DNA of 64,000 bases from Gammaproteobacteria bacterium (GTDB lineage Bacteria > Pseudomonadota > Gammaproteobacteria > Natronospirales > REEB76), in assembly GCA_027315405.1 (NCBI GenBank), contig DAHUYB010000087.1, forward strand, positions 9,672 through 73,671, read 5' to 3'. A model generated the notes under the pieces. It searched no databases. It was not told the origin of the DNA and saw only the letters and a program-made list of their open reading frames with translations. Made by a program: the position numbers and the translations under genes. This document shows positions 6,657 to 57,073 of this stretch, one piece after another (position 1 is the first letter of the stretch; each line of letters opens with the position of its first letter).

Positions 6657-7031
6657 CTACGCGATGGAGGATGTGGGCGTAAACCGAACCGGCAGCGAGA
6701 AGGTTTTGGATCGATCCCAGAGGCCTTCAATCCATTGTCGTTGGCGCATCGCGACACAGAGTTTGAGGATGTCCTGGCGGCCCTCGCGGGGGGGGGTGTA
6801 GCCGGCCTTGGCGAACAGTTTGTAACGCAGGGTTTTCAAGGTGTGCTGCACGTCCTGGCCGTTACCCTGAATCACACTGGCTTTGAGTACCGCCTGGCGG
6901 AACAGGCCCATCAAGTTATAAGCCAGCAACGCTGTGTTCAGGCACGCTTCCGTGGCCCAGAAATCGTTCAGACAAAAGCTGTTAGCGGCAAAGTCGTATT
7001 TCAATTGATGAGATTCTAAGGTTCTGGTCAA
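6657..7031 (-). pseudogene. C-terminal fragment of an IS1380/IS4-superfamily DDE transposase
   Basis: Only about 120 codons are present: ...DFAANSFCLNDFWATEACLNTALLAYNLMGLFRQ...TLRYKLFAKAG.... This resembles the conserved C-terminal block of IS1380-type transposases. The N-terminal catalytic part is missing. Confidence 0.6.
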
Positions 7032-8066
7032 GCCCCGATGAGCGCGGGGTCAAAGCAGGTATCGTGTTTATACAGTGCAAAGGCTACGCGCACCAGCTTG
7101 CGGGCGAGTACCACGAGAGCGATGGAGGTGGACAGGCCCTTGGCGCGCTGGCGTTCGTAGCAGGGTTTCCACGTGGCGGTCTTAGCCGCACTCATGGCGG
7201 CGTTATAGGGCAGACGGTGCAGTTCCGCGGGACCTGCGCTTGGACAGCCGGCGGCGACCGCGACGCTGGCCGGAGTCGCAGGGCCGCGGGTCGAACCCAA
7301 GGTAGGCGATGACGGCGTCACTGCGTGAGAAGGACACGCGCGAGAACAGTTCGGTGAGGGCGGCGCCCGACAGCGGTCCGATGCTGGGGATGGTGCGCAG
7401 GTGTGCCTAGCGCGAGGGGCCTTGCGGCAGCGCCCTGACGGCCTGCGGCAACGCGCGATCCAGGGCAGTGAGGAGCGCATCGAGCTGGTTCAAGGTCGCG
7501 TCCCGCTGCGCCTGCAGGATGTCCAGACCGGCGAGGCTCGCCCGCAACATACCCGGACACCACGACTTTGGCGCGGCGTTTGAGCAGTGGGGTCAGACGG
7601 TCTTGGGCCGGGGTCGGCCGGCTGCCAGGGATGCAAGCCGGTATGCTCCTGGGCCAAATAGCGCGCCAACAGGGCCGCATCCACTCGATTCGTCTTGGCG
7701 CGGCGCCCCAGCGCGGGCATAGTGGTGGACATCGTGAGGGTTGAGCACCTAGACGGTGATTCCCCGGGCGTGGGCGCGCTCGGCCAGCAAGCGGTGGTAG
7801 TCATCGGTGGATTCCACCCCCGAGGTGGACACCTCAGGCAGGGTGGCGAGCCAGGCATTCACGGCGGCGGGCGCGTTGGCGCACGTCGTCACACCGGCCT
7901 GGTCGAAGACGGCCGCCACGAGTTCGTATTTGGCCACATCGACACCGATATAACAGTACAAGCCAAGGAAGGCGCGAAGCGCCGAGGCGAAGGAACCTGC
8001 GGTAGCCGCAGCGGACGAAGCACCGCGTCTGCGTGGTGCGAAGGCCGCGCTGCGGCGTAGAGGCAT
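7028..8066 (-). pseudogene. IS110-family transposase gene, multiply frameshifted
   Basis: The N-terminal block ...YIGVDVAKYELVAAV... lies in ORF 7749-8066. The middle block ...DAALLARYLAQEHTGLHPWQP... lies in another frame (7490-7858). The C-terminal block ...GLSTSIALVVLARKLVRVAFALYKHDTCFDP... lies in a third frame (7028-7480). Stops and frame changes separate the pieces. Confidence 0.8.
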
Positions 8067-27886: not shown

Positions 27887-29137
27887 ATGCAGGAGCTGCT
27901 GTTTCTGTGCCATCGGCTTCCGTATCCTCCCAACAAGGGCGACAAGATTCGCTCCTATCACTTATTACGGCATTTTGCCGAGAAATATCGCCTGCACCTC
28001 GGGACATTTGTGGATGACCCGGCGGATTGGCGGTATGTCGAGACGGTCAAGACGCTGTGTGCCGAGACCTGTATTCGCCCCCTGAATCCACTCTGGGCAC
28101 GTCTCAAGGTCTTGACAGCACTCGGGCGGGCAGAACCGCTCACCGTGGCTTATTACCGTGACCGGGTGATGCAACGCTGGGTGGACCGGATCCTGGCGAG
28201 GGCAACGGTGAAGGCAGTGGTAGCGTTTTCATCCGGCATGGCCCCATTCATGCTGCGAGCGGGCAGAGTGCGCCGGATAATGGATTTTGTAGATGTGGAT
28301 TCGGATAAATGGCGCCAATATACCGAAACCCATACAGGTATTGCCAGCATGATTTACCGGCGTGAAGCAAAGTGCCTCGCCGACTTTGAATTACGAGTGG
28401 CTGCCGAATCTGACGCTTGCACATTCGTGTCTGGAGCTGAAGCGGAATTTTTCCGCAAGCATGTTCCCGGCCTTGCGAGCAAGATTCACGGTATCCCCAA
28501 CGGCGTGGATACGGATTATTGGGATCCGATGCGCGATTACCCCAACCCCTACGCGCAAGGTCAGAGGACCCTGGTATTTGTCGGCGCCATGGATTACTGG
28601 GCCAATGCCCAGGGCGCGCAATGGTTTGCTAGCGCCGTCTGGCCACAGATACATAATAGATTTCCCGTTGCACGCTTTTATATTGTGGGGAGTAATCCTT
28701 CCAGGGCGGTAAGTGCGCTCGCCCGCATTGAGGGAGTGGTGATAACCGGTCGTGTCGAGGACGTTCGGCCTTACATATCCCATGCGCACGCCGTTGTCGC
28801 TCCCTTGCGCATCGCCCGCGGCATACAGAACAAGGTGCTGGAAGCGCTGGCCATGGGCAAGGTACTGTTGGCAACACCGCAGGCATACGAGGGTATTGAG
28901 GACTACAAGGAACGCCAGGGCTGTGTAAGTGACTCGGTGGACATTCTGGTGCGGGAGGCCGTGCGCTGGCTGGCGGAACCGACTCCGGCCGAGGTACCGG
29001 CAGTTCGGCAGCGGCTGCTTTCCTCTTATAGCTGGCAAAAGCTTTTTGACCGGTTTGATGTCCTGCTCAATGATGCAGCCGTGCTGGATGAAAGCCCAGC
29101 CGGATTTGCGGCTTCACCGGTTCGGGAGGCGCAGTGA
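27887..29137 (+). CDS. glycosyltransferase, 'stp1' type (PEP-CTERM/EpsH1-associated GT4-like)
   Basis: MQELLFLCHRLPYPPNKGDKIRSYHLLRH is the characteristic N-terminus. The C-terminal GT-B motif is ...APLRIARGIQNKVLEALAMGK.... It sits immediately upstream of xrtA. Confidence 0.85.
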   Translation: MQELLFLCHRLPYPPNKGDKIRSYHLLRHFAEKYRLHLGTFVDDPADWRYVETVKTLCAETCIRPLNPLWARLKVLTALGRAEPLTVAYYRDRVMQRWVDRILARATVKAVVAFSSGMAPFMLRAGRVRRIMDFVDVDSDKWRQYTETHTGIASMIYRREAKCLADFELRVAAESDACTFVSGAEAEFFRKHVPGLASKIHGIPNGVDTDYWDPMRDYPNPYAQGQRTLVFVGAMDYWANAQGAQWFASAVWPQIHNRFPVARFYIVGSNPSRAVSALARIEGVVITGRVEDVRPYISHAHAVVAPLRIARGIQNKVLEALAMGKVLLATPQAYEGIEDYKERQGCVSDSVDILVREAVRWLAEPTPAEVPAVRQRLLSSYSWQKLFDRFDVLLNDAAVLDESPAGFAASPVREAQ

Positions 29138-30711
29138 TGAGCCGGCTACTGGTGGTGAAATCCGGTAATTCAGCCCGCGTATCCGTATGGCAGGCTGCCG
29201 TCTGGGCGTTTGCAATTGTCGTGGTTATTCTCGGCGCCGGTTACTGGCGCACCATCGAATCATTGCTATGGGTATGGGGTCACGATGGAACATACCAATA
29301 TGCCTTTCTTATTTTTCCGCTGAGCATCTGGACCGCGTTCAATTTGCGTCACGAACTCCTGGCAGGCACTCCCAAGCCATGTATCTGGGGGTTGACGATA
29401 GTCGCCGGCCTGGGTTTTATCTGGCTTGTGGGCCAGCTTGTCAGTATCAATCTGGTACAGCATTTTGCCCTGGTCGCGATGTTCCCGGCATTAGTGCTGA
29501 CTTTCTGGGGTGCGCGCGCGGTTCGCGTACTGGCCTTTCCCCTGGGATATCTGGTATTTGCCATCCCATGGGGTGATTCGCTGGTGGGCCCATTACAGGA
29601 TTTCACCGCCCACTTCAGCGTGCGGGCCTTGGAATTGACCGGCACCCCGGTGATTCTCAATGGGCGTGAAATAATCACCCCCACGGCCACCTGGATGGTG
29701 GCGGATGCCTGCAGCGGCGTGAAATTCTTTATCGCCTGTACTGCATTAGGTTGCCTGTACGCATACCTTATATACCAGCGCTGGTGGAAGCGGATACTGT
29801 TTGTGCTGCTGGCGGCGGTGGTCCCCATTATTGCGAACGGCTTGAGGGTATTTTTTACCATCCTCATCGGCGACACCTGGGGCCTCAAATACGCCACCGG
29901 TACGGATCATCTGATATTTGGCTGGCAGTTTTTCGGCGGCGTGCTGGTTATCCTGTTGCTGCTGGGCTGGTTGTTTCGTGATCCTCTTGTCATAACCCGC
30001 CGTGTACCAAGCAATGGCCACAGGGCTTCCCCCTGGCATGGGGCTGTGTGGGCAATCGCCATCGTGCTGGTGATTGCCGGTCCGCTACTTGCGGCATGGA
30101 TACGATTACCCGGCGCCCCGGTTAACCAGGCGCAACTGGCGGCACCCCCAGTGCCCGGTTGGCTCGGACCAGAAAGTCCGCCGGCGAGCTGGAATCCGAG
30201 TTACCGCGGGGCCGCCGCTGAAATACAGGTGGCGTACCGTAACCGCGTCACCGGCGCCAGCATCGAGGTTTTTAATGCACTGTATCTCGGTCGCCCGCGC
30301 CGCGATCATAACCTGATTACCTACGGCAACAATGTCTATGATCCTGCTACGGCGAGAGTGTTGAGCGCTGCCACCCGAAGGATCCCCCTGGCCAGCGGGC
30401 ACTCAGCCCGAGTGCGGGAGCTGCGTCTGTCAACCGCGAACGGTCCGCGCATCGTCTGGTACTGGTACTGTGTCAATGGCCACTGCACAGCTTCCGCCAT
30501 ATTGGTGAAGCTGATGCAGGGTTTTTATGCACTGACAGGACGTGACTCCCGCTCCTCGGTATGGGCGGTCTCGGCAGTTGAAAATGCGGGTGGACTCCAG
30601 GCGTTGCGCACGAGCATGGCGGCTTTCGTACGTGCGGTCCCCGGCATTATCGGACAGGGACCACACCCGGATGAATCAGTTTGGGTGCATTCAGCGGCAA
30701 GCCGGCCATGA
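29134..30711 (+). CDS. xrtA: exosortase A fused to an EpsI-family domain
   Basis: 525 aa with about 8 TM segments. The exosortase motifs are read directly: ...VADACSGVKFFIA... (Cys), ...IANGLRVFFTILIG... (Arg) and ...TDHLIFGWQFFGG... (His). A ~200-aa C-terminal soluble part, ...VWYWYCVNGHCTASAILVKL..., resembles EpsI. The start is either GTG 29134 or ATG 29137. Confidence 0.92.
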   Translation: MMSRLLVVKSGNSARVSVWQAAVWAFAIVVVILGAGYWRTIESLLWVWGHDGTYQYAFLIFPLSIWTAFNLRHELLAGTPKPCIWGLTIVAGLGFIWLVGQLVSINLVQHFALVAMFPALVLTFWGARAVRVLAFPLGYLVFAIPWGDSLVGPLQDFTAHFSVRALELTGTPVILNGREIITPTATWMVADACSGVKFFIACTALGCLYAYLIYQRWWKRILFVLLAAVVPIIANGLRVFFTILIGDTWGLKYATGTDHLIFGWQFFGGVLVILLLLGWLFRDPLVITRRVPSNGHRASPWHGAVWAIAIVLVIAGPLLAAWIRLPGAPVNQAQLAAPPVPGWLGPESPPASWNPSYRGAAAEIQVAYRNRVTGASIEVFNALYLGRPRRDHNLITYGNNVYDPATARVLSAATRRIPLASGHSARVRELRLSTANGPRIVWYWYCVNGHCTASAILVKLMQGFYALTGRDSRSSVWAVSAVENAGGLQALRTSMAAFVRAVPGIIGQGPHPDESVWVHSAASRP

Positions 30712-37109: not shown

Positions 37110-38404
37110 GAAATGCTGCCTCAGTCCCGGCAAGTGAAACACAGTTGCAAACCCCGGATAGCAAGCCGCTGCGCATCCTGCATATCCTGGATCATTCCGT
37201 GCCTCTGCACAGCGGCTATGCATTTCGGACATTGGCTATTCTAGCCGGTCAGCGTGATTTGGGATGGGAAACATTTCAGTTGACAAGTCCAAAACAGGGG
37301 CAGGCGAGTGAGTTACAGGAGCAAGTAGGTGAGTGGATATTTAACCGCACCCCGCTCGCAACGAGTTTTGTATCCAGAGTTCCGGTCGTAAAACACTGGC
37401 GGCTTATCCAGGCTCTTAAAGCACGGCTCCGGGATGTGGTGAACGCAACTCATCCGCATATCCTGCATGCACATTCACCGCTGCTGAATGCCTCCCCTGC
37501 ACTCACTGTTGGCCGGGAGATGGGCCTGCCGGTGGTGTATGAAATACGCGCCTTCTGGGAAGACGCGGCCGCCGATCACGGTACCGCAACTGAGTGGGGT
37601 CTGCGCTACCGGCTGACCCGGGCGTTGGAAACCCATGTCATACGTCGTGCCGATGCGGTGACTACCCTCTGCGAGGGGCTGCGTACCGATCTGATCGCGC
37701 GGGGTATTGCTGGCGAGAAAGTGACGGTGATTCCCAATGCGGTGGACATCAATCAATTTCGGGTAGGTACAACCCCTGACCGTGATCTGATGGAAAAATA
37801 CGGTATGCAAAGCGGGTTTACCTTGGGGTTTGCCGGCTCGTTCTACGCGTATGAAGGACTGGATGTGCTACTCAGGGCCATGCCGTATATTGCTGAAGCC
37901 ATTCCACAAGTACGGTTGCTGCTGGTAGGAGGCGGACCACAGGAGTCTGGGCTGAGGACACTGGCGGCAGAATTGGGCCTGAACGATATTGTGCATTTTG
38001 CCGGACGGGTGCCGCACGACGATATTGCACGCTATTACAGCGTGATGGATATCATGGTGTATCCACGACTGCCGCGCCGTCTCACAGAACTGGTCACGCC
38101 CCTGAAGCCGCTCGAGGCCATGGCACTTGGCAAGCCGGTGGTGGCCTCCGATGTGGGCGGCCACCGGGAGCTGATTTGTGACGGTAAAAATGGCTATCTT
38201 TTCCCGGCAGGGTCAACAGAGGCGCTGGCACAGTGTCTCGTCAGCTTGCTCAAAACTGGCTCGGCCTCTTGGGAAACGGCAGTGCATGCCGGAAGGAATT
38301 ATGTGGAACGCGAACGCAACTGGCCCACGAGTGTGTCGCGTTATCGTTCTGTTTATGCGCGCGTCCTGGATCGGTCAGAGCACACCGTAGAGGACCGTCG
38401 GTGA
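37106..38404 (+). CDS. glycosyltransferase family 4
   Basis: ATGA overlap with the upstream gene. ...LRILHILDHSVPLHSGYAFR... and ...TPLKPLEAMALGKPVVASDVGGHRE.... Confidence 0.85.
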   Translation: MRNAASVPASETQLQTPDSKPLRILHILDHSVPLHSGYAFRTLAILAGQRDLGWETFQLTSPKQGQASELQEQVGEWIFNRTPLATSFVSRVPVVKHWRLIQALKARLRDVVNATHPHILHAHSPLLNASPALTVGREMGLPVVYEIRAFWEDAAADHGTATEWGLRYRLTRALETHVIRRADAVTTLCEGLRTDLIARGIAGEKVTVIPNAVDINQFRVGTTPDRDLMEKYGMQSGFTLGFAGSFYAYEGLDVLLRAMPYIAEAIPQVRLLLVGGGPQESGLRTLAAELGLNDIVHFAGRVPHDDIARYYSVMDIMVYPRLPRRLTELVTPLKPLEAMALGKPVVASDVGGHRELICDGKNGYLFPAGSTEALAQCLVSLLKTGSASWETAVHAGRNYVERERNWPTSVSRYRSVYARVLDRSEHTVEDRR

Positions 38405-39606
38405 ACATGCGAGCTCCAGCGGTGGTTGTCGGGGCGGGCATCAATGGTCTGGGTGTAGCGCGCAGTCTGGCGCGTGAACGAGTACCTGCCTGGATCGTGG
38501 ATTCCGATTCTCGACAGCCGGGGATGCATACCAACGCTGCGCGGCCTTTGGTAATGCCCGCCATGCAGGGAGAGGCTTTGATTGATGGGCTCTTGGCGTT
38601 GGGGTTATCTCAATTCCATGATTTACACCCGGTGCTGATCCTGACTCAGGAAGAAAGTGTCAAGGCGGTCTCGCAATACCGCGAGGTCCTGTCACCTCAT
38701 TACCGTTTCACTCTTCCTGAGCAGTCGGTTGTGGATTCATTGCTGCACAAGGAAATGTTCCAGCGTGTGGCGGAACGGCTGGGCGCACCTATTCCGCCAC
38801 TGGTTCATATCCGCTCAATTCAGGATTTGTCTCTGTTGAATTCCGTTCAGTATCCGGTAGTGATCAAGCCGGGTGAGCGTCACGCTGGTTACAGTCATAT
38901 GTTTAAGAAGGCATACCGTATCGGCGACGTGGCCGAAGCCGAGTATCTGGTCCGGAGGATTTTGCCGGTCATGCCGGATGTGGTCGTGCAGGAATGGATC
39001 GAGGGAGCGGATTCGGACATATTCTTTTGTTTGCAATATATCGGCCACAATGGGTCTGCCGTGACATCATTCACGGGCCGCAAAATTCGTTCCTGGCCGC
39101 CACAGGTGGGCGGTACCGCTAGTTGTATGGCCGCATCCGAAGCAGCCTGTGATCTTGCCACGTTAAGCACCCAGTTTTTCCGCGCAGCAGGCGTTGCGGG
39201 TTTAGCCGGGATGGAATACAAGCACGATACCCGTACCGGCGAATTCAAAATGGTGGAACCGACCATTGGACGCACGGACTACCAGGAAGAAGTGGCGACA
39301 TTGAGCGGGGTCAACCTTCCGTATACCGCCTATTGTGCCGAGCTTGGCATACCTGGGTTGCAACCGGTGCCAACAAAGCGGCCGGTGGTATGGCGGGATC
39401 GCTTGGCAGATTCACAGTCCGCGGCAGCCCAGGGCCAAGGTGCCAAGCAAGGCTTCCCGCGCGGCTGTGTTGTTGCAGAGGCCTTGTGGCGACCGAATGA
39501 TCCCATGCCATTTCTGATGCACATGACGAGGCGTTTGAGCCGTGCATTGCATGCCCGGACCTCAAGGATGCTGAAGATACCTAAAAATGCCAAGGGCGAG
39601 TCATGA
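38401..39606 (+). CDS. ATP-grasp family ligase
   Basis: The start is GTG 38401 (GTGA overlap) or ATG 38407. ...VVVGAGINGLGVARSLA... is the pre-ATP-grasp part. ...YPVVIKPGERH..., ...VVVQEWIEGADSD... and ...EFKMVEPTIGRTD... match ATP-grasp nucleotide/Mg motifs. The track start 38233 lies inside the previous gene. Confidence 0.75.
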   Translation: MNMRAPAVVVGAGINGLGVARSLARERVPAWIVDSDSRQPGMHTNAARPLVMPAMQGEALIDGLLALGLSQFHDLHPVLILTQEESVKAVSQYREVLSPHYRFTLPEQSVVDSLLHKEMFQRVAERLGAPIPPLVHIRSIQDLSLLNSVQYPVVIKPGERHAGYSHMFKKAYRIGDVAEAEYLVRRILPVMPDVVVQEWIEGADSDIFFCLQYIGHNGSAVTSFTGRKIRSWPPQVGGTASCMAASEAACDLATLSTQFFRAAGVAGLAGMEYKHDTRTGEFKMVEPTIGRTDYQEEVATLSGVNLPYTAYCAELGIPGLQPVPTKRPVVWRDRLADSQSAAAQGQGAKQGFPRGCVVAEALWRPNDPMPFLMHMTRRLSRALHARTSRMLKIPKNAKGES

Positions 39607-40721
39607 TCGGGGTCTTAAGCACGCTGACGAAGCGGGTCAAACGGAACAAAATCGCGGCCTTGGATGCACGTGCCGCGATGGTGGCGGCGGCTGAGTGGCT
39701 GACGCGCGCCCAGGATGCCACCGGTACGGGCGGAGTCAGTGCTTACTATGACCTGAAATCACATAAGTGGGCCGCCGCTTATCCCGAAACTACCGGTTAC
39801 ATCATTCCGACATTTTTCCGTTATGCGGAGTTCTCGGGGCAAACTGAATATCGCGAGCGTGCCCTACGCATGGCCGCCTGGGAATCTGATATCCAGCTTC
39901 CTGAAGGCGGCGTTCGTGCGGGTACCATGGATGCCACTCAGGTTGTGCCCACCATATTCAATACCGGCCAAGTCATGTTTGGTTGGTTAGCCGCCTGGGA
40001 GCAGACCGGGGAACCGCGGTTCCGTGATTCACTGGTACACGCGGCGCAATGGCTGCTGGCAGCGCAGGATGCGGATGGGGCCTGGCGGCGCTTTGCCTCG
40101 CCGTTTGCCGCACATAAAGTCAATACTTATAACACCCGCGTAGCCTTCGCACTTGCCCAGGCCGGAAAAATACTGAAGAAGCTTGAATACACCGAAGCAG
40201 CAATTCGTAACATCAACTGGGCACTGACACAAATGCGGAGCAACGGCTGGCTGGAAAACAACGACCTGGAGGACAATGCGCGACCCTTGACGCATACCAT
40301 TGCCTATGCGGCTCGCGGCATACTTGAGGTGGGTCTGATCGCGAAGAATTCGGCTTTTGTGGATGCCGCCGCTCGCATCGCGCGGGCGGTCGCCGGGACA
40401 CAGCGCCGGGATGGAGCATTGCCAGGTCGTCTGGATGCCCAATGGCGGTCTGCGGCCCGCTGGAGCTGTGTCACCGGCAATGCACAGATGGCCATCATCT
40501 GGCGGCGTTTGGCACGGGAAACCGGAGATCATTTCTGGAAGGCGCACGCCGAGCAGGCAACCCGCTTCAATATTTCCGTGCAGGCGCTGTCCGTTGCCGA
40601 TGCTGGGATACGGGGGGGCATCCCTGGATCCCATCCTCTGCGAGGCGGGTACATGTCCTACCGGTTCCCGAACTGGGCCGCCAAGTTCTTCATAGATGCC
40701 GTGTTGTTGCAACTGACATAG
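39603..40721 (+). CDS. uncharacterised protein with prenyltransferase/terpene-cyclase-like (alpha/alpha) repeats
   Basis: ATGA overlap with the ATP-grasp gene. QW-like repeats recur: WLTRAQDATGTGG, WLLAAQDADGAWRRF, LTQMRSNGWLE, VAGTQRRDGALPG. No signal peptide is evident. Confidence 0.6.
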   Translation: MIGVLSTLTKRVKRNKIAALDARAAMVAAAEWLTRAQDATGTGGVSAYYDLKSHKWAAAYPETTGYIIPTFFRYAEFSGQTEYRERALRMAAWESDIQLPEGGVRAGTMDATQVVPTIFNTGQVMFGWLAAWEQTGEPRFRDSLVHAAQWLLAAQDADGAWRRFASPFAAHKVNTYNTRVAFALAQAGKILKKLEYTEAAIRNINWALTQMRSNGWLENNDLEDNARPLTHTIAYAARGILEVGLIAKNSAFVDAAARIARAVAGTQRRDGALPGRLDAQWRSAARWSCVTGNAQMAIIWRRLARETGDHFWKAHAEQATRFNISVQALSVADAGIRGGIPGSHPLRGGYMSYRFPNWAAKFFIDAVLLQLT

Positions 40722-40732
40722 CGTGTAGCAGA

Positions 40733-42031
40733 ATGCGTGATCTTCTCATTGCCTTGATTGTATTCGGATCCATTCCATTCATTCTGATGCGCCCGTATCT
40801 AGGTTTGCTGATGTGGTCCTGGTTGGGCTATATGAATCCGTATCGGTTGGCCTATGGATTTGCCTACAACTTTCCCTGGGTTGAAATCATTGCCATTGTC
40901 ACGCTCGTCGCCCTTATCTTCAGCAAGGAGAGCAAAAAGATTTCGGTTTCATCAATCAGCGTACTGTTATTCCTTTTCTTAGTCTGGACAGGTATTTCCA
41001 CAATCTTTGCGGTCAAATCGGACTCAGCCCTGCTCACAGGGGAAGAGTTTTGGAAAACTCTAACCATGGTCTTTGTTACGCTGATGCTGATAAAAAATCG
41101 TCAGCGCATGCACTGGCTGGTGTGGGTAATCGTGATTTCTCTGGGATTTTATGGCCTCAAGGGTGGGGTATTCACGGTGTTGAAGGGGGGCGCATACCAC
41201 ATATATGGGCCACCCAAGAGCTTCATTGCTGACAATAATGACTTGGCCCTGGCTCTTTGCATGACTTTGCCGCTTATAAGATATTTGCAAATTAATTCAA
41301 CATATAAAGCGGTACGTCTAGCCATGGCCCTCACCTTGATCCTTACTGGCGTAGCAATTCTTGGCACGTATTCACGTGGCGGTTTGGTTGCCTTAGTGGT
41401 TGTGAGCGGAGCTTTACTACTTAAAACTCGCCGCCGCCTCGTAATCATGATGGCAATCGTGATGGTTGGACTCACAGCCTATACTTTTATGCCGGCACAA
41501 TGGAAGGAACGTATGGATACACTCCATCATGCTGAGGAGACTGATTCCGCTCAGGAACGCATTCAGTCGTGGGAGTTCGCTGTGAACGTGGCTATCCATC
41601 ACCCGTTGGTGGGCGGCGGCTTCAACGTTTATCAAAGTGATTCCATGTGGAAGAAGTATGGACCGCAGGGTGCCATTCCACGCGCGATCCACAGCGTATA
41701 TTTCCGCGTGCTGGGCGAGCAAGGATTTCCCGGACTTATCATCTTCATAGGGCTTCTTTTCGCAAGCTGGCGGAGCTGCAGTCGTGTGAGGAAAAAAACA
41801 CGGGATTCACCTGGATGGAAATGGGCGTATGACCTCAGTTCCATGCTGCAAGTGAGCCTGGTTGCCTATGCGACGGCTGGTCTGGCCACGACATCAAGCT
41901 ATTTTGATCTTACATATCAATTAATTGCGATGTGTATTCTATTAGAAGATATCGTCATAAGTCAGATAAAAGAACCCATTGCTGATAAAGGGGTTGGTCA
42001 TGCGCCAGCTGATTTTCCCCAAAGGAGATAA
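40733..42031 (+). CDS. O-antigen-ligase/Wzy-like polymerase (exosortase-A-associated O-glycosylation ligase type)
   Basis: ATG 40733. The product starts MRDLLIALIVFGSIPFILMRPYLGLLMWSWLGYMNP and has about 10-12 TM segments. A Wzy_C-like loop reads ...GTYSRGGLVALVV.... The track ORF start 40442 overlaps the previous gene. Confidence 0.85.
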   Translation: MRDLLIALIVFGSIPFILMRPYLGLLMWSWLGYMNPYRLAYGFAYNFPWVEIIAIVTLVALIFSKESKKISVSSISVLLFLFLVWTGISTIFAVKSDSALLTGEEFWKTLTMVFVTLMLIKNRQRMHWLVWVIVISLGFYGLKGGVFTVLKGGAYHIYGPPKSFIADNNDLALALCMTLPLIRYLQINSTYKAVRLAMALTLILTGVAILGTYSRGGLVALVVVSGALLLKTRRRLVIMMAIVMVGLTAYTFMPAQWKERMDTLHHAEETDSAQERIQSWEFAVNVAIHHPLVGGGFNVYQSDSMWKKYGPQGAIPRAIHSVYFRVLGEQGFPGLIIFIGLLFASWRSCSRVRKKTRDSPGWKWAYDLSSMLQVSLVAYATAGLATTSSYFDLTYQLIAMCILLEDIVISQIKEPIADKGVGHAPADFPQRR

Positions 42032-47781: not shown

Positions 47782-49266
47782 ATGACGAAAATAAAAAGTA
47801 ACCTGCGAAGAGCCCTCATTCTGTCGTTCGCACAGAAATATACAAGTCTTGCTTTCAACCTTCTCACGGTAATTATTGTGAGCCGGTTACTTACGCCCAA
47901 ACAGATCGGCGTATTTTCGGTAGCGGCTGGCCTAACCGCGCTTGCGTCAATGTTACGTACCTTTGGAGTAAGTGAGTACTTGGTGCAGGAAAAAGCATTA
48001 GATGAGGCGACAATCAACACGGCGTTTACAGTCAATCTGGTCCTCGCTTGGATCGTAGCCGGCGTACTTTTTGCAGTAAGCGGTTTGATTGGTGGCTTCT
48101 ACGGTGATCCTGGAGTTGGACAGGTCTTAAGAGTGATGAGCGTCACATTTATTCTATCTCCGTTTGGCACCACCGCATTGGCACTGTTACAGCGTGATAT
48201 GGCATTCGGTACGCTCTACAAGATTCGCCTGGGTGAAGTTTTGGTTAGGGCTGGCGTGACGATCGGTTTGGCTTTCGCCGGATTTGGTTACATGAGCATG
48301 GCCTGGGCGTCACTTGCGGCCATTATTGCCTGGATTGCAGGTTGCACTGTGTGGGGACATGCATACCGAGCACGGGGTTTAAGTTTGTCAGAATGGCGGC
48401 GCATGGTTCCATTCGGTGTCAACCGGACAGTTACAGATATTGTCATCCAGCTCGGGATGCAATCAGCGAATATCGTCGTGGGCAAGATGCTGGGATTGAC
48501 CGCGGCGGGTTTTTATTCGCGGGGTAATAGTATTGTGCAAATGTTCCGTGAAAAGGTAGTCAGTGCGATCGGTGCGGTTGCTTATCCCGCCTTTGCCAAG
48601 GAGCACCGAGAGCGGGAAGCGGCTCCTGAGCTCTTTATACGTTCTCTTGTTTATCTAACCGGCATCAGTTGGCCATTTTTTGGTTTTGCGACGCTCATGG
48701 CATTCCCGATTATCCGTACTCTTTTCGGAGACCAGTGGGACGCCGCTGTACCAGTGATGCGGTGGCTTTGTGGTGCAGCGATTGTCGGTACGCTGATATA
48801 TCAATGCAATTATTTTTTCACGGCGATTGGCCGTGTTGGGGTCGTGACGGCTGTGGAGATACAGTATCAGCTTATGAGATTGGGGCTCGCTATTCTGGCG
48901 GCTGTATATAGCATTGAAGCAGTCGCGGCTTCCCAGATATTGGTCTATGCCATCGCAGCAGTACTTTATTATCGGAAACTGACACGCTACGAATCGTTAA
49001 CTATCACCAAACTCATCACAGCACTATTTCCGAGCGGCGTGGTAACACTAACAACATGCATTATACCTGCAGTCGTTATTTTGTGGCCTGGCTTCAGATC
49101 CGGGCATTATCTTCTAGCCCTAATTGTTGCTGCTATCGGTGCGGGTCTTGGTTGGCTGATGGGGTTGATCTTGACAAACCATCCTTTGATGAGTGAAATC
49201 AAGCGTGGTGTAATTAATTCCTGCCGTTATATTCGCGGTATCAGGGCTAAGGCGACCTCAGAATGA
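47782..49266 (+). CDS. Wzx-type polysaccharide flippase (MOP superfamily)
   Basis: 494 aa with about 12-14 TM segments. The N-terminus ...LRRALILSFAQKYTSLAFNLLTVIIVSRLLTPKQIGVFSVA... is typical of PST-family flippases. Confidence 0.85.
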   Translation: MTKIKSNLRRALILSFAQKYTSLAFNLLTVIIVSRLLTPKQIGVFSVAAGLTALASMLRTFGVSEYLVQEKALDEATINTAFTVNLVLAWIVAGVLFAVSGLIGGFYGDPGVGQVLRVMSVTFILSPFGTTALALLQRDMAFGTLYKIRLGEVLVRAGVTIGLAFAGFGYMSMAWASLAAIIAWIAGCTVWGHAYRARGLSLSEWRRMVPFGVNRTVTDIVIQLGMQSANIVVGKMLGLTAAGFYSRGNSIVQMFREKVVSAIGAVAYPAFAKEHREREAAPELFIRSLVYLTGISWPFFGFATLMAFPIIRTLFGDQWDAAVPVMRWLCGAAIVGTLIYQCNYFFTAIGRVGVVTAVEIQYQLMRLGLAILAAVYSIEAVAASQILVYAIAAVLYYRKLTRYESLTITKLITALFPSGVVTLTTCIIPAVVILWPGFRSGHYLLALIVAAIGAGLGWLMGLILTNHPLMSEIKRGVINSCRYIRGIRAKATSE

Positions 49267-50160: not shown

Positions 50161-51393
50161 TCATGATGCATCAATTCGAGATGATGAAGACCTCATAAGG
50201 GCGTGTGAAAAGCTCCCTGCGTTCAACAGCACCGCCAGACACAACATCGCTGCGGAACGCATTGCTGCACGCCATTGATGGGTGTGCAGTGATCGCTGTA
50301 ATGTCCAAAAGATGCCACGCGCTATTGAAGGTGCTAACGATTTTGCACCGGTAGCTTTAAGTGTAAAGCTAAGATTTATGATCAGGGAGTATGGACGCGG
50401 TAGCCTCCAGGGGCCAATATCCAAGGCCTTCGATAAGATGGATTTAACCTGGCTTGTAGGTTGTTCAATTTCGTTCAGGCGATCGAGCCCGTCTTTCATA
50501 TCCATCATTGCCTCATTCGTAAGTCCTTGCCGAAACATGATGCAGCTTCTTTGAAGTAAAGCCAGCCCATGCTCAGTTTCAGTCAGGACTGGTAGGTCTG
50601 TTCCTGGTTCATGGGGAAGATAAATTGCCAGGGGACACTCATCTCTTACCAAACGAAATATCCGTTGCTGATACTGTAATTGTATCGCTGATCTTTGATG
50701 GACGCTGTGAACCTTCATCGTTGGTCCTCGAGGGCCTGGATGGTCACGTAATACAAATGTCGGTTTTTGAATATTAAGCGCTTTGAAGCGCCGTGCCAGC
50801 CTAAGTAGCATTTCACTATCCTGGGCCCTCAGCAACGTTGGGTTGAAAGGTCCTGCTTCAGCGAAACAGCGTTTTGGAATTAACATGCCCTGGAACAAGG
50901 TATTGATGCCTTCCATGCTTCGGATTAGAAACAAATCCACGGGCCACGCAGGTATAGTTTTTAAACTCCATTTGTCCTGCTGCCAGATGTCGCTCGTACC
51001 CGAATATACATAGTTAGTGCTATAAGAAAAGTCTGTCTCTGAATGGGCGGTAAGGAAATCTATGTGGCTTTGAAGGGCATCCGGCAACGCCACGTCATCG
51101 TCATCGAATATCCAGATATGGGAACTCTGAGCCAGTGGGATTCCTAAATTTAGTGCAGAGGATTTACCACGATTTTCGGTCCTGTAATAACGAATCTGTT
51201 TGTTGTAGTGTTCCGCAACTTCGGCAGTTTCATCAGTCGAACCATCATCCACGACGATGATTTCATCGGGGGGGCGAGTCTGATGCAAGAGGCTATCCAA
51301 TGCCTGCGGCAGATAGTGAGCGCGGTTGTAGGTCGCGATAACAACCGACACGCTGATAGCAATTGTTTTTGGGCTTGAGCGATTAGCCATCAT
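50161..51393 (-). CDS. glycosyltransferase family 2 (only minus-strand gene of the locus)
   Basis: ...VSVVIATYNRAHYLPQALDSLLHQTRPPDEIIVVDDGSTDET... and ...IWIFDDDDV.... It is convergent with the preceding GT2, leaving a 10-nt gap. Confidence 0.88.
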   Translation of the reverse strand: MMANRSSPKTIAISVSVVIATYNRAHYLPQALDSLLHQTRPPDEIIVVDDGSTDETAEVAEHYNKQIRYYRTENRGKSSALNLGIPLAQSSHIWIFDDDDVALPDALQSHIDFLTAHSETDFSYSTNYVYSGTSDIWQQDKWSLKTIPAWPVDLFLIRSMEGINTLFQGMLIPKRCFAEAGPFNPTLLRAQDSEMLLRLARRFKALNIQKPTFVLRDHPGPRGPTMKVHSVHQRSAIQLQYQQRIFRLVRDECPLAIYLPHEPGTDLPVLTETEHGLALLQRSCIMFRQGLTNEAMMDMKDGLDRLNEIEQPTSQVKSILSKALDIGPWRLPRPYSLIINLSFTLKATGAKSLAPSIARGIFWTLQRSLHTHQWRAAMRSAAMLCLAVLLNAGSFSHALMRSSSSRIDAS

Positions 51394-51566: not shown

Positions 51567-52427
51567 ATGATCCCTGCTATCCAATATTTTAACCTTCCAG
51601 CCGAACTCTTAACATCAGAAATTGAGGAAGAATTCTTTTCTTCGTTGAAATTACGCAATGGGACGTATAAAACGACTTTTCAGAAACGCTTCTCAGATAT
51701 AAATAAGCAGATCCTAGTACTGCTGAAAACTACTGATATAAAAGTAGATAATATACTGGATATTGGCATCTCTTCAGGGATAAGTACACTTGAACTGGTT
51801 GAGGACTTAAATTCAGCGGGCTATACAAATCATATCGTCGGTACGGATTTGCTAATGGACGCTTATATCGTGCATATATTTCCAGGTTGTTATGCACTTG
51901 TAGATAACACCGGCTATCCACTAAGATTTGATTTGTTCAAATGGAGTATCAAACCCTGGATTATAAGAACAGACTATCATAATGGTTTCTTCATTTTCCG
52001 TAAATTCATCAATCTTATATTTGTATATCGCGCAAAGAATCTGATTGCCAAATCCAAGCATGCGGATGTCCAGAAGGTGAAACTTATCACACCAAAGCTA
52101 TTAAGTCACACTAATGTGGTTATTCAGATGGGTGATATAACTAAATTTAATTATTCGTATAGAGAAAAGTTCAATTTCATAAGGGCTGCAAATATATTGA
52201 ACGTGAGTTATTTTACGAAGGCGGAATTAGTCGCAATAATTAACAATATTAAACATTATTTTACGAAGCCAAGTGGAACTTTATTGGTAGTGCGCACCCA
52301 TGAAGACGGGAGCAACCATGGCAGCTTGTTTAATATTGCTAACCATAGCAAGTGTGAAGTTATTGGGCGATTTGGAGCGGGTTCAGAGATAGAAGATATT
52401 GTACTTGCGTCAATAAATAAGCACTGA
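51567..52427 (+). CDS. putative class I SAM-dependent methyltransferase
   Basis: 286 aa in very AT-rich DNA. Motif I-like is NILDIGISSGISTLEL, the acidic end of beta-2 is IVGTDL, and later blocks are FIRAANILNV and GTLLVV. The assignment rests on motif resemblance only. Confidence 0.55.
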   Translation: MIPAIQYFNLPAELLTSEIEEEFFSSLKLRNGTYKTTFQKRFSDINKQILVLLKTTDIKVDNILDIGISSGISTLELVEDLNSAGYTNHIVGTDLLMDAYIVHIFPGCYALVDNTGYPLRFDLFKWSIKPWIIRTDYHNGFFIFRKFINLIFVYRAKNLIAKSKHADVQKVKLITPKLLSHTNVVIQMGDITKFNYSYREKFNFIRAANILNVSYFTKAELVAIINNIKHYFTKPSGTLLVVRTHEDGSNHGSLFNIANHSKCEVIGRFGAGSEIEDIVLASINKH

Positions 52428-52548: not shown

Positions 52549-53199
52549 ATGCAAGCAGATGTCCATTCTAGGCAACTGATTATCGGATGTGGAACAGGTA
52601 GATGTGGCACTGTATCTTTGATGCAGTTTTTGAATAGCCAAGTGGATGTTTCCATACTCCATGAAGGGCTGACCGCCGATAAAATCCACCACCTCATCCC
52701 ATGGTATAAAGGGGAAACTCAGCTGTGGTCTTGGATGATTGAACTTGAGAAATTGTCAAACGGAGCAAGATGGTACGGGGATATCGGTTTTTACTATCTC
52801 CCTTATCTTCCGAAGATATTTGACCGTTATCCAAAATCACGTGCCATCTGCCTCGAACGGCGCAAGAAGGCAGTGATCCAAAGTTTCCTTAAAAAAACGA
52901 CTGGAAGGAATCACTGGTACATGCATAAGGGCGTAGGTTGGAAAGAGGATGATGAATGGGATAACACTTTTCCTTACTATGCAGAGCTGAACAAATCCAA
53001 GGCCATTGGTTTATATTGGGAGCAATATCACAGTACAGCTTTGGAATATTGCGCACTGTTTCCGGATCAGTTTATGTTGGTGCCTACATCGGCACTGAAT
53101 ACGACAAAGGGCCGACTGAAGATATTAGGGTTTATCGGCTACGATAGAGAAGCCATGCTTGATGGGCAGTTCCGAGCGAATAACATCCGCCCTAAATGA
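52549..53199 (+). CDS. hypothetical protein, possibly a divergent sulfotransferase-fold enzyme (ST3-like)
   Basis: 216 aa. The N-terminal P-loop-like segment LIIGCGTGRCGTVSLMQFL sits where the PSB loop would be. AICLERRKKAVIQSF resembles an R-x7-S 3'-PB segment. The similarity is weak and motif-level only. Confidence 0.45.
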   Translation: MQADVHSRQLIIGCGTGRCGTVSLMQFLNSQVDVSILHEGLTADKIHHLIPWYKGETQLWSWMIELEKLSNGARWYGDIGFYYLPYLPKIFDRYPKSRAICLERRKKAVIQSFLKKTTGRNHWYMHKGVGWKEDDEWDNTFPYYAELNKSKAIGLYWEQYHSTALEYCALFPDQFMLVPTSALNTTKGRLKILGFIGYDREAMLDGQFRANNIRPK

Positions 53200-53306
53200 T
53201 GGGGCTTGATTGTTTATGGTCTTGAAGATTACGGAATTCTTAAGGTGGTCCACCTGATATCTGATCGTGGTGCTATGTCAGATTTGATACTCATTCGGGA
53301 TATGAA

Positions 53307-53996
53307 ATGATATTGCTGATCACGCAAGTGATGATATTGTGTTTTCTAATTATTTCTGTAGCGCTTTGGGGAGGGTATTTTCCTCATCCTTCCCCCTTAA
53401 TTCGACGTTGGTTGCCGCCACGTAAGCGCTGGCCTGAAGCGCAGATTCGGCGATGGCTGAAGACGGGGAAATTTCAGCGGGCATTTCTGAATTATTTTTA
53501 TCGTGATCCAGAGCGCACACCACCTCTCGGCAACAGCATTCTCGCTCCCGCTGACGGGGCGGTAACTAGTGTTGAGGTGCGCGACGGAGTGCGCTATCTG
53601 GTGATTGCACTCAGTTTCTGGGACATGCATGTACAACGCAGCCCCGTGTCCGGCAGAGTGGTCAAAGTGGAGTCACATGGAAGTGATTTTATGGACGGCG
53701 AAGGACGGAAATTCGCTTTTCTCAGAGAGAAACCCTGCCCGGTACAGAAGCGTGTGGTTATTGCCACGAGTGTGGGAGAAATTGCGGTGCGGCTGATTAC
53801 CAGTCTTGCAGCGCGTCGTATTGAAGTCTGGGTGCGGGAAGGGGGGAGACTTGTGCGTGGACAGAGAATCGGCCGGATTTTGCTGGGCAGCACCGTGGTG
53901 CTTGAGCTACCTGCAACCATAAACCTTAGCGTACAAGTGGGTGAGCGTGTTAAAGCGGGTGAAACCGTTGTTGCACAGGAAATGATCTCAGTATGA
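53307..53996 (+). CDS. phosphatidylserine decarboxylase family protein (short, membrane-anchored type)
   Basis: 229 aa with an N-terminal TM segment. ...ILAPADGAVTSVE..., ...WDMHVQRSPVSGRV... and ...GQRIGRILLGSTVVLELP... are present. The last contains the LGST self-cleavage motif of pyruvoyl PSDs. Confidence 0.75.
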   Translation: MILLITQVMILCFLIISVALWGGYFPHPSPLIRRWLPPRKRWPEAQIRRWLKTGKFQRAFLNYFYRDPERTPPLGNSILAPADGAVTSVEVRDGVRYLVIALSFWDMHVQRSPVSGRVVKVESHGSDFMDGEGRKFAFLREKPCPVQKRVVIATSVGEIAVRLITSLAARRIEVWVREGGRLVRGQRIGRILLGSTVVLELPATINLSVQVGERVKAGETVVAQEMISV

Positions 53997-54196
53997 ACGC
54001 ATTCTGGTGGACATCCGGGCATCTGGGTTGGGGCATTTTTGCACTGATCGCGTTTACGGGAATATGGTGGTTGTTGTTCGATTTGTGCTGGCGCTTGGTT
54101 ACCATCAGGATAAACCGGCTCTTGACCGTGATGGGCATAGGATGGTTGGTTGGCGTTGCCTGTATTTTACTGGGTTTCTATGTGGCTGGCTGGTAA
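53993..54196 (+). CDS. small two-TM membrane protein, translationally coupled to the PSD-like gene
   Basis: ATGA overlap with the upstream gene. 67 aa, Trp-rich, with two hydrophobic helices: GWGIFALIAFTGIWWLLF and VMGIGWLVGVACILLGFYVAGW. Confidence 0.6.
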   Translation: MNAFWWTSGHLGWGIFALIAFTGIWWLLFDLCWRLVTIRINRLLTVMGIGWLVGVACILLGFYVAGW

Positions 54197-54427: not shown

Positions 54428-57073
54428 TTGAAGTCAGCACTGTGTCTACCGTTCGATTTCGCCTGGCTGTCTTGGCGAGCCCTGGGTCGGGACAGCCTGA
54501 TACACGGCAAGAGGGCTGGCGGAAATTCTCTTGATTTCCCCAAAATAGCCAGGTTGCCGTTGACGGGGTTATCCATTGTATGTGTGTGTGCTGGCGCGGC
54601 GCTCACGATAGGTGTTGCGCAAGCCGGCACGCTGCTAGTCACCAATAACCTCATCAATGAGGGCTCACAAGCGCAGGCTAATGTTCCGGTTACCTTCGGG
54701 CAGATTTTCAAGGGCGGTGATGTGCCTGCCGGCGAGACACTCAGTGCGACATTAGGCGGTCAGCCTATCCAGTTGCAGATTGATACCAAAGCCACCAACC
54801 CGGACGGCAGTCTGCGCCATGCGGTATTGACGGCGCTAGTTCCCTCGATCTCCGGTAATTCCACCGCGCCGCTTGCCTTGTCCACCGCAGCACCTTCGAC
54901 GCCAGGCTCTCCAGTTACGCTTACCCAATTGCTTGCCACCTCGTTTGACGCCACCGTGGATATCAATATCGGCGGGACGGATTACACTGCAAGTGCGAAA
55001 CAGTTGCTACAGGCGAACCAAGCTGCCTGTGCTCCCTGGAACACCGCTTGCAATGTGTGGCTCTCCGGCCCCTTGGTCAGCGAGTGGATTGTGGGCGGGC
55101 CGGTGAAAAGCTCGGGAGGCACAGCGAACCCCAACCTCCAGGTCTATTTTGATGTACGAGCTTATGCGGGGAACCCCATCAATCGGGTGCGTGTGAATGT
55201 GGTCATCGAGAACGACTGGGCGTATACGCCGCAGACAAGTATTACTTATAACGCTACCCTGACATCAGGGTCGGATACCTACACCATCAGCAACCTCACC
55301 CACTATGCCTATGCCCGCTGGCATCACGTGCTGTGGTGGAACGGCAGCAATCCTGACATTTATGTCCAGCAGGACACCCAGTACATTCAATCCACCGGGG
55401 CAGTTTCGCGCTACGAGGTGCTGACTCCGGACAACTCTTTCCTGAGCAATCGTATCCAGTCGTGCTTACCTATGCAGCATTGTGACCAGACCTTGACCAT
55501 GGGTAATACCGGCGCGCAGGACGGCATTGGACCTCTGCCGCGCTGGACCTCGACCTATATCGTTGATCCGGATTATCGCGCCTATAATTGGATGCTCGCC
55601 GACGACGATGCCATTGGAGCCTATTCCGTGCATTACCGGGATCAGGCAACAGGGTTGCCGCTCAGCATTATCAAACATCCGTATGTGACTACCGCTGCCT
55701 GGAACTATGCCAATTCCGTAGCGAAACAAAATCCCACTACTTGGGGTAAAGATCTGCTGCCGAATTGCAACAGTAGTAGTGCGAATTACTGCGTGAACAA
55801 TCCCGACCAGTTCGACAACGCCCATCACCCCTCAGTTGCGTTTGTTTCTTACATGGTTACCGGGGATTACTACTATCTTGAAGAAATGCAATATGTAGCT
55901 TCCTACCTGGAGCTGTGGGCCAACCCACCCTATCGTGGCTATTCACAGGGGTTGGTTTATGCCGCCGAGGAACAGACTCGCGGTAAGGCGTGGACAATGC
56001 GCAGCATCGGCGATGCCGCTTACCTTACCCCGGACGCTGACCCCATGAAAGCCGAGTTCACCGCGGATATCAACAATGCGGTTGCGGATTTCATTGCGCA
56101 GACGGCTAACAATCCAAACGCCAATCCACTTGGCCTGGTGTCGAATTATTTCTACTCCGTTAACGGAGGCACCAATAATGGTGCGGCGCCCTGGCAGGAC
56201 GATTTCTTGACTTGGGCGGCTGGCCATTTGGCGGAACAAGGTGTTCCGGGCGCCAGTACCCTGCTGAATTGGAAGGCGCAATTCCAGATTGGCCTGATGA
56301 CTGACTGGTTCAATAATCCGACTCAGGGATATTGCTGGTTGGAGGCTTCCGCCTATTCACCACAGTTCAAGGATTCGTCGGGGAATTTCTTACCAACATT
56401 TACGGCTGTGTACCAGGTCAATTTCCCGACCTTGTATGGACTGACATGCAACAGTCCGCAAATGGTGACCGCCATGGGCTTACTCGAACATGCTACATGG
56501 CAGGCGGGAGAGATGCACGGCTATCCTAATTCAGCTACCGGATTCCCGGCCAACCTGCAGATCGGACTAGCCGCGGCTGCGGCCAGCAATTTGCCGAACG
56601 CTCAGCAGGCCTGGCAGACTTTCCAGGGCCGGAGCATCCAGCCGACCCCTCCCAACAGCTATAACGACTACCCTAATTTTGCCGTCCTACCCCGTTACTT
56701 GCCGGCGGTCCCCATCGTAAATCTCTATGCCAGCCCCAATCCGGTGGCGGCGGCGGGAGATACCACTACCCTGTACTGGAATGCCAGCAATGCCACCAGT
56801 TGTTCGGCCCCCTGGACCGGCAGTACCGCGACTTCGGGTCAGATGACCGTGACGGTTAGCGCGAATGCTGCCTTCCCGATCACCTGCACCGGACCGAATG
56901 GCTCCACCAACGACCCCGTGAGCGTTTCCATTGGCAGCGGCACGACGACGACGCCCCCCCCACCTCCGGCCACGTCCCCACCCGCGGCAGGGGCGGGAGG
57001 CGGCGCCATGAGTTGGTTGGCCCTGGTGTTCCTGATGACCGTGGCTGGGTGGGCAAGGGCAAAGCGCCGCTGA
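54428..57073 (+). CDS. large secreted protein of unrecognised family ('LpB'), paralog of 44344-46470, with extra Ig-like domain, Pro/Thr linker and C-terminal sorting signal
   Basis: TTG 54428 lies 7 nt after AGGAG. The signal-like segment is ...LPLTGLSIVCVCAGAALTIGVAQA/GT. The C-terminus reads ...TTTTPPPPPATSPPAAGAGGGAMSWLALVFLMTVAGWARAKRR. The start codon is uncertain. Confidence 0.8.
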   Translation: MKSALCLPFDFAWLSWRALGRDSLIHGKRAGGNSLDFPKIARLPLTGLSIVCVCAGAALTIGVAQAGTLLVTNNLINEGSQAQANVPVTFGQIFKGGDVPAGETLSATLGGQPIQLQIDTKATNPDGSLRHAVLTALVPSISGNSTAPLALSTAAPSTPGSPVTLTQLLATSFDATVDINIGGTDYTASAKQLLQANQAACAPWNTACNVWLSGPLVSEWIVGGPVKSSGGTANPNLQVYFDVRAYAGNPINRVRVNVVIENDWAYTPQTSITYNATLTSGSDTYTISNLTHYAYARWHHVLWWNGSNPDIYVQQDTQYIQSTGAVSRYEVLTPDNSFLSNRIQSCLPMQHCDQTLTMGNTGAQDGIGPLPRWTSTYIVDPDYRAYNWMLADDDAIGAYSVHYRDQATGLPLSIIKHPYVTTAAWNYANSVAKQNPTTWGKDLLPNCNSSSANYCVNNPDQFDNAHHPSVAFVSYMVTGDYYYLEEMQYVASYLELWANPPYRGYSQGLVYAAEEQTRGKAWTMRSIGDAAYLTPDADPMKAEFTADINNAVADFIAQTANNPNANPLGLVSNYFYSVNGGTNNGAAPWQDDFLTWAAGHLAEQGVPGASTLLNWKAQFQIGLMTDWFNNPTQGYCWLEASAYSPQFKDSSGNFLPTFTAVYQVNFPTLYGLTCNSPQMVTAMGLLEHATWQAGEMHGYPNSATGFPANLQIGLAAAAASNLPNAQQAWQTFQGRSIQPTPPNSYNDYPNFAVLPRYLPAVPIVNLYASPNPVAAAGDTTTLYWNASNATSCSAPWTGSTATSGQMTVTVSANAAFPITCTGPNGSTNDPVSVSIGSGTTTTPPPPPATSPPAAGAGGGAMSWLALVFLMTVAGWARAKRR

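Follow-up and report, generated by a model that had tools for sequence, protein, structure and literature searches.

Gene content of the locus

The window, i.e., the whole stretch of 64,000 nucleotides that was analysed, belongs to a gammaproteobacterial genome assembly (GCA_027315405.1). It encodes exosortase A, the mark of a polysaccharide locus of the XrtA/PEP-CTERM type, and a Wzx-type flippase together with a Wzy_C-family gene, which indicate that lipid-linked repeat units are made on the cytoplasmic face (Table 1). The island also encodes a FemAB-like protein, an AsnB-like amidotransferase, sulfotransferases, a deacetylase and genes of the PrsK/PrsR/PrsT type; by inspection, uronate donors also appear to be provided for, by a nucleotide-sugar dehydrogenase and by epimerases. 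Within this locus lies a gene for a 229-aa protein of the phosphatidylserine decarboxylase (PSD) family, the stop codon of which overlaps (ATGA) the start of a small ORF encoding 67 aa. The original prediction had placed this pair in a polysaccharide locus, and the exosortase, flippase and Wzy_C genes bear this out.

Table 1. Features of the window, with positions counted from its first nucleotide
Feature	Position	Strand	Evidence and remarks
Exosortase A	29134..30711	+	TIGR03109, 289.8 bits vs cut-off 208; context, not a dedicated partner
ATP-grasp carboxylate-amine ligase, putative pathway partner	38401..39606	+	Fusion identity, profile matches, co-occurrence; start at 38401 (GTG) or 38407 (ATG)
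(alpha/alpha)-barrel protein, coupled to ligase	39603..40721	+	51%-identical homologue in distant fusion locus L074
Wzy_C-family gene	~40733-42031
Wzx-type flippase	47782..49266	+
Pyruvoyl proenzyme of the PSD family (accessory, short type; 229 aa)	53307..53996	+	Pfam, NCBIfam, AlphaFold model, fold matches, residue table, tree; TM helix at 2-24, then a basic amphipathic segment (25-64); catalytic domain at 59-225
Two-helix Trp-rich membrane protein, 67 aa	53993..54196	+	47/47 loci, alignments
Secreted PcRGLX-like protein, GlyGly-CTERM-like tail	54428..57073	+	Downstream of the psd pair

The island had also been described as AT-rich, which was overstated: the GC content is 52.5% for the psd-like gene, 50.5% for the small ORF and 53% for the island vs 57.9% for the genome, so that the AT shift of the pair is only mild. 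The two genes upstream of psd (36–45% GC) are the only truly AT-rich ones. A 286-aa gene at 51567-52427 (36% GC) carries a methyltransferase-like LDIG motif, found no match in Pfam or NCBIfam and has an apparent homologue in a Rhodanobacter locus (L055:4369-5232). The product of a 216-aa gene at 52549-53199 matches Sulfotransfer_4 weakly (23.8 bits, cut-off 22.8); the gene also lies 5′ of psd in three related loci (L007, L015, L067) and is followed here by a terminator-like hairpin (53189-53205). Upstream of psd, no sigma-54 box was matched in 27 loci, visual inspection showed no shared motif, and a sigma-70 scan returned chance level.

Further away, a GT2 glycosyltransferase gene (50161-51393) runs on the minus strand amid the plus-strand cluster and has a 34%-identical homologue in locus L074. 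A minus-strand ORF at 7028-7480, in a GC-rich stretch ahead of manC/manB-like genes, has a C terminus resembling the end of IS110-type transposases and is presumably a remnant. Of 34 homologues of the PcRGLX-like neighbour in related loci, only two carry its GlyGly-CTERM-like tail, and a link between the psd pair and a GlyGly-CTERM neighbour was therefore rejected. A rhombosortase gene scoring above the cut-off exists elsewhere in the genome (C79:10028-10483). Just beyond the window, a further GlyGly-tailed ORF lies on the minus strand near position 76807 of contig C76, and the only VPEP-tailed (PEP-CTERM) protein found by pattern scan lies near position 77244, past the window end; the latter was missed by the genome search with PF07589.

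An accessory branch of the phosphatidylserine decarboxylase family

The 229-aa protein belongs to the PSD family but falls outside the housekeeping PSD equivalogs. PF02666 matched residues 59–222 (E 9.1e-31, 107.5 bits vs a cut-off of 22), and the LGST motif occupies residues 193–196. A single N-terminal hydrophobic helix (Kyte-Doolittle 2.7) appears as helix 2–24 in the AlphaFold model (pLDDT 90), followed by short helices up to residue 64 and then by a beta domain. No lysine or arginine precedes the helix and nine K/R residues follow it; the helix is predicted to be N-out/C-in and would anchor the protein so that its catalytic domain faces the cytoplasm. A structure search with the model retrieved E. 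coli PSD (7cnz; Z 10.1; 118 aligned residues, rmsd 3.0), PsiD and the Aspergillus oryzae arginine decarboxylase. PTS IIA chains, which share this fold, ranked slightly above E. coli PSD. Sequence searches of the PDB with the psd product or the ATP-grasp ligase alone gave no match.

In E. coli PSD, the self-cleavage set and cleavage site comprise D90, D142, H144, G253 and S254 (PMC7952604). The equivalent residues D83, D106, H108, G194 and S195 are all present in the 229-aa protein (forming an intact Asp/Asp-His-Ser set, D83/D106-H108-S195) and invariant in 41 aligned relatives; thus, this clade probably retains both self-cleavage and amino-acid decarboxylation chemistry. The proenzyme is predicted to cut itself between G194 and S195, which would give a 22.2 kDa beta and a 3.7 kDa alpha chain and a pyruvoyl enzyme. 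A membrane-anchored pyruvoyl proenzyme with an LGST site had been foreseen in the original prediction, and the family, motif and helix were all recovered.

Short-type PSDs are the nearest resemblance of the protein, yet it scores below every curated equivalog cut-off of NCBIfam, with NF003685 the best (143.5 vs 183) and TIGR00164 at 123.3 vs 230; the model for the PssD of protein-sorting systems, NF038088, gave 105.6 vs 240. It shares with the bacterial and archaeal short-type phosphatidylserine (archaetidylserine) decarboxylases (PF02666; PRK05305; TIGR00164) the domain, length class, N-terminal membrane segment and the RDPxR, PADG, DxH and GS motifs, including F64-x-R66-D67-x-x-R70. It differs from them in belonging to a separate clade with substitutions at F101 (to A), N-E (to V-Q), G166 (to S) and GSR (to GST), in having a single TM segment plus a basic helix and a constant small membrane partner, in the lack of an adjoining pssA, and in being a second copy found in polysaccharide loci. 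With the long-type E. coli Psd (PDB 7CNW-7CNZ, 6L06) it has the fold (Z ~10, TM 0.46) and the D/D-H-S set with LGST in common, but only ~17–24% identity; the phosphate-binding Y137 is replaced by Ala, a TM anchor takes the place of three amphipathic helices, and the window protein is not the sole source of phosphatidylethanolamine (PE).

A housekeeping pathway is encoded elsewhere in the same genome. A canonical 290-aa psd lies on contig C53 (TIGR00163, 256 vs 111.75) and pssA on contig C60 (above the TIGR00473 cut-off). Together with the equivalog scores below cut-off, this rules out the 229-aa protein as the housekeeping enzyme, in agreement with the original prediction. Likewise, all five named Rhodanobacter, Salinisphaera and Oleiagrimonas genomes carry a canonical psd in addition to the clade copy. 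Further PF02666 copies outside the clade occur as a weak third copy in Salinisphaera orenii (G065 C12:9113-9574) and as second copies in two ligase-positive genomes (G145 C54:122652-123338; G335 C1:3130327-3130971). No PssA homologue was found in the window, as had been predicted, or in 47 related loci; the sole match came from a canonical control locus (L054). PF00884, the sulfatase/phosphoethanolamine (pEtN)-transferase fold, had no match in the 98%-complete genome, whereas the E. coli control was positive. The earlier idea that the enzyme supplies PE locally for a pEtN-type modification is therefore unsupported.

A homologue search with the 229-aa protein yielded 760 matches at E 1e-20 or better; the best 120 of these are mostly ~229 aa long and 70–99% identical. 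In GTDB genomes, 47 loci carrying the clade were found among Rhodanobacteraceae, Salinisphaera and uncultured Gammaproteobacteria. A quick maximum-likelihood tree, rooted at its midpoint only and calculated without fragments and half of the canonical sequences, separated 41 clade members from 52 canonical short PSDs (SH-aLRT 99), and a core clade including the window protein received 97. Position 101, equivalent to the phosphate ligand Y137 in E. coli, is F in 90 of 102 canonical sequences and A, G or S in 16 of 17 core sequences. Further pocket changes from canonical to clade sequences are E146 to V, G166 to S and R/Q196 to T. These changes suggest another substrate, although they neither prove it nor decide on activity; since canonical short PSDs themselves carry F rather than Y at position 101, loss of the aromatic residue there is no proof of lost phosphate binding. 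In some distant clade members the N-terminus is basic, and these may be oriented outward. In one member of the wider clade, P0254 (L089:56-2062), a signal-peptide-like N-terminus and a sulfatase domain precede the PSD domain, suggesting an exported sub-branch with another role.

A constant two-helix membrane partner

Directly after psd, the small ORF was found in 47 of 47 related loci, while the remaining neighbours and their orientation vary freely. The junction is a 4-nt overlap in 37 loci, an 8-nt overlap in four, abutting or overlapping by 1 nt in five, and frameshifted in one error-prone record. Between the window ORF and 17 orthologues, mismatches by codon position amount to 368/300/560; with this coding-type divergence and a closed family of 104 homologues, the ORF is a real gene. 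Its product has eight tryptophans and two hydrophobic segments, so that the coupled two-helix, Trp-rich protein described in the original prediction is well founded. In the alignments, D30, W33, R34 and W51 are invariant and G9-H10-x-x-W13 nearly so. The protein corresponds to no family in Pfam, NCBIfam or the ESM Atlas (best score 0.88, unnamed). A shortened homologue of ~52 aa in genome G390 (L083:12200-12360) lacks the G-H-x-x-W start and keeps D-x-x-W-R.

The small protein also follows distant clade members. In P0230 it is fused N-terminally, ahead of the PSD helix (HMM E 7.6e-11), and the path of this fusion, with a basic loop, a Gly/Asp linker and a basic stretch after the third helix, is consistent with an N-out protein of three helices and a cytoplasmic catalytic domain. 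In P0228, too, PSD continues into the small ORF, but this record looks frameshifted throughout and was left out of the fusion count. The possibility that the 67-aa protein is a detached N-terminal hairpin of canonical short PSDs was rejected, as its HMM matched none of ~100 such sequences. In a complex prediction, the PSD-like and the 67-aa proteins reached a score of 0.34 vs 0.00 for the best control, with contacts agreeing to at least 94% between runs and a partner pLDDT of at least 78; the mark applied is reached by 58 of 80 solved and 2 of 110 mismatched pairs, though at scores up to 0.60 by only seven of the 80 and by both mismatches, so that the model supports the pairing weakly. Taking gene order, fusion and prediction together, the hairpin is quite likely a membrane subunit of the 229-aa enzyme.

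Association with an ATP-grasp ligase

About 15 kb upstream of the psd pair, the window encodes an ATP-grasp ligase that the original prediction had overlooked and that is a probable partner of the PSD-like enzyme. It has the ATP-grasp fold, matches the CarB and Ddl profiles (E 3e-9 to 5e-9) and shares 38% identity (E 9e-69) with the N-terminal domain of P0377, a natural fusion of an ATP-grasp domain with a PSD domain. Five such fusions occur within the wider clade (P0375-P0378 and P0252), none of them in the core clade of the 229-aa protein. A sixth protein, P0379 (ENA ERZ1758598), has the reverse order, with a membrane PSD of the canonical short type ahead of the ATP-grasp domain; the two families have thus probably been joined twice. 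The locus of P0379 also contains glycosyltransferases, AsnB, YdjC and a second ATP-grasp gene. Both fusions on long contigs lie among glycosyltransferases. One of the fusion loci, the glycosyltransferase-rich L074, shares the (alpha/alpha)-barrel protein with the window, and in the distant locus L088 the ligase is encoded 1.5 kb from psd. The small membrane protein is absent from the two readable ATP-grasp-fusion loci, where the PSD domains have no TM helix.

The ligase was present in all 20 clade-bearing genomes tested, but it travels together with XrtA in close relatives, so that this figure mostly reflects co-inheritance of one island. In a class-wide sample of 401 genomes, XrtA occurred in 76, the close ligase family in six and the clade in two, both ligase-positive. 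The only sharp test of co-occurrence is a single genome, G390, one of the four that have the ligase among the 75 other XrtA genomes. As 74 of the 76 XrtA genomes lack the clade, it is not a general XrtA accessory. Conversely, eight genomes, including four that are 98–100% complete, have the ligase but lack the clade, which fits decarboxylation as an optional downstream step.

The label "D-aspartate ligase" is attached by JGI to P0378 only, and NCBIfam contains no specific model for the window ligase. Two genes of the Asp/Glu racemase family lie on contigs other than that of the island; the second (C72:27386-27976) could be a source of D-amino acids for the ligase.

Proposed reaction and alternatives

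These results lead us to propose that the PSD-like enzyme tailors the polysaccharide of the locus, downstream of the ATP-grasp ligase. The ligase would couple an amino acid by its side chain to a sugar repeat, e.g., as beta-aspartyl on an amino sugar or, alternatively, as the side-chain amide of lysine or ornithine on a uronate. The alpha-amino and alpha-carboxyl groups would thereby stay free, arranged as they are in phosphatidylserine, and a pyruvoyl enzyme requires just such a free alpha-amino acid group. The membrane anchor suggests that the substrate is the lipid-linked repeat unit. The PSD-like enzyme would form a Schiff base with it and remove the alpha-carboxyl group before the repeat is flipped, so that a zwitterionic arm would become a cationic one that carries an amine, e.g., beta-alanyl. 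We regard the odds as evenly balanced that the ligase loads the repeat by a side chain and the PSD-like enzyme then decarboxylates the product to an amine-ended arm. The complete reading, a two-subunit, membrane-bound PSD-fold decarboxylase acting on an undecaprenyl-linked repeat to convert a ligase-installed amino-acid arm, has in our estimate a probability of about 45%. It corresponds to one branch of the original prediction, a glycan intermediate as substrate; nothing in the evidence is specific to the serine or ethanolamine named there.

The individual steps have precedents. AslA activates the beta-carboxyl group of aspartate via beta-aspartyl phosphate (PMC4155827), aspartate, lysine and ornithine substituents occur on bacterial glycans (PMC10609480), and PsiD is a PSD-fold enzyme acting on a non-lipid amino acid (PMC11929908). 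Like AslA/Aslfm, which together with AsnH amidation builds the peptidoglycan side chain, the ATP-grasp ligase would leave free alpha-amino and alpha-carboxyl groups, and an AsnB-like amidotransferase is encoded nearby. Unlike AslA/Aslfm, it lies in a Wzx/Wzy polysaccharide context with no linked racemase and its second step would be decarboxylation. PsiD (a Trp decarboxylase) and the A. oryzae arginine decarboxylase (Z 8–9) show that PSD-fold pyruvoyl enzymes were redeployed to non-lipid amino acids, but these are soluble fungal proteins acting on free amino acids, whereas the window protein is bacterial, linked to a glycan locus and predicted to be membrane-bound.

A role in lipid metabolism, as a decarboxylase of a phospholipid or another aminoacyl-lipid, would take the form either of a second, co-regulated activity from phosphatidylserine (PS) to PE or of an activity on serine-phosphate head groups, carried by a lipid or a glycan; the product would feed an ethanolamine-type substituent, as in the options of the original prediction. 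PSDs are the best family and fold matches, the protein has a membrane anchor and the F64–R70 motif of canonical short PSDs, PS could be supplied from the unlinked pssA, and the wider-clade P0254 is fused to a sulfatase-fold domain. All the same, every PSD equivalog score stays below its cut-off, a housekeeping psd is always present, none of the 47 loci has a linked pssA and the genome no PF00884 gene, and a lipid substrate would not explain why fusions to an ATP-grasp ligase recur. Such a role appears unlikely.

The two steps could also run in the reverse order, with a free amino acid decarboxylated as by PsiD to beta-alanine, ethanolamine or a diamine, and the ligase then amidating a uronic-acid carboxyl group with this amine. 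The fusions do not fix the sequence of steps, and the fused forms, having neither TM helix nor small partner, may be soluble. The locus appears equipped for uronate donors, and uronamides with amino compounds are known (PMC10609480). A membrane anchor and a dedicated membrane partner are hard to justify for a free substrate, and the ligase works without the clade in the near-complete genomes G335 and G608, which makes this order rather improbable.

Finally, the provision of an ethanolamine lipid for C-terminal anchoring of PEP-CTERM/GlyGly-CTERM proteins is very unlikely: the Haloferax PssA/PssD-archaeosortase system (NF038088; PMC7157517) is a precedent for a PSD homologue with a sortase-type system, XrtA, a GlyGly tail on the next gene and a rhombosortase are present, and P0230 and P0227 lie near PEP-CTERM genes, but the clade is absent from most XrtA genomes, the tail is rare among the PcRGLX-like neighbours, the score stays far below the NF038088 cut-off and there is no dedicated PssA.

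Implications

In the literature searched, which left subscription journals largely outside its coverage, we found no description of a module of ligase and PSD-like enzyme, or of a post-ligation decarboxylation in polysaccharide biosynthesis, a step which this clade would mark. By default, PSD-family genes of bacteria are annotated as lipid enzymes, and the clade, comprising hundreds of proteins, would thus be mis-annotated. If the proposal is true, it would add an undescribed glycan-tailoring reaction, extend the PSD family to a new class of substrates and make the 67-aa protein a required subunit in the membrane. It would also give direct access to the way in which the polysaccharides of XrtA loci receive substituents that derive from amino acids and change the charge. 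The same gene pair is carried by cultured strains of Rhodanobacter, Oleiagrimonas and Salinisphaera. For these and related Gammaproteobacteria of acid and salt habitats, the reaction would constitute a charge switch on their slime.
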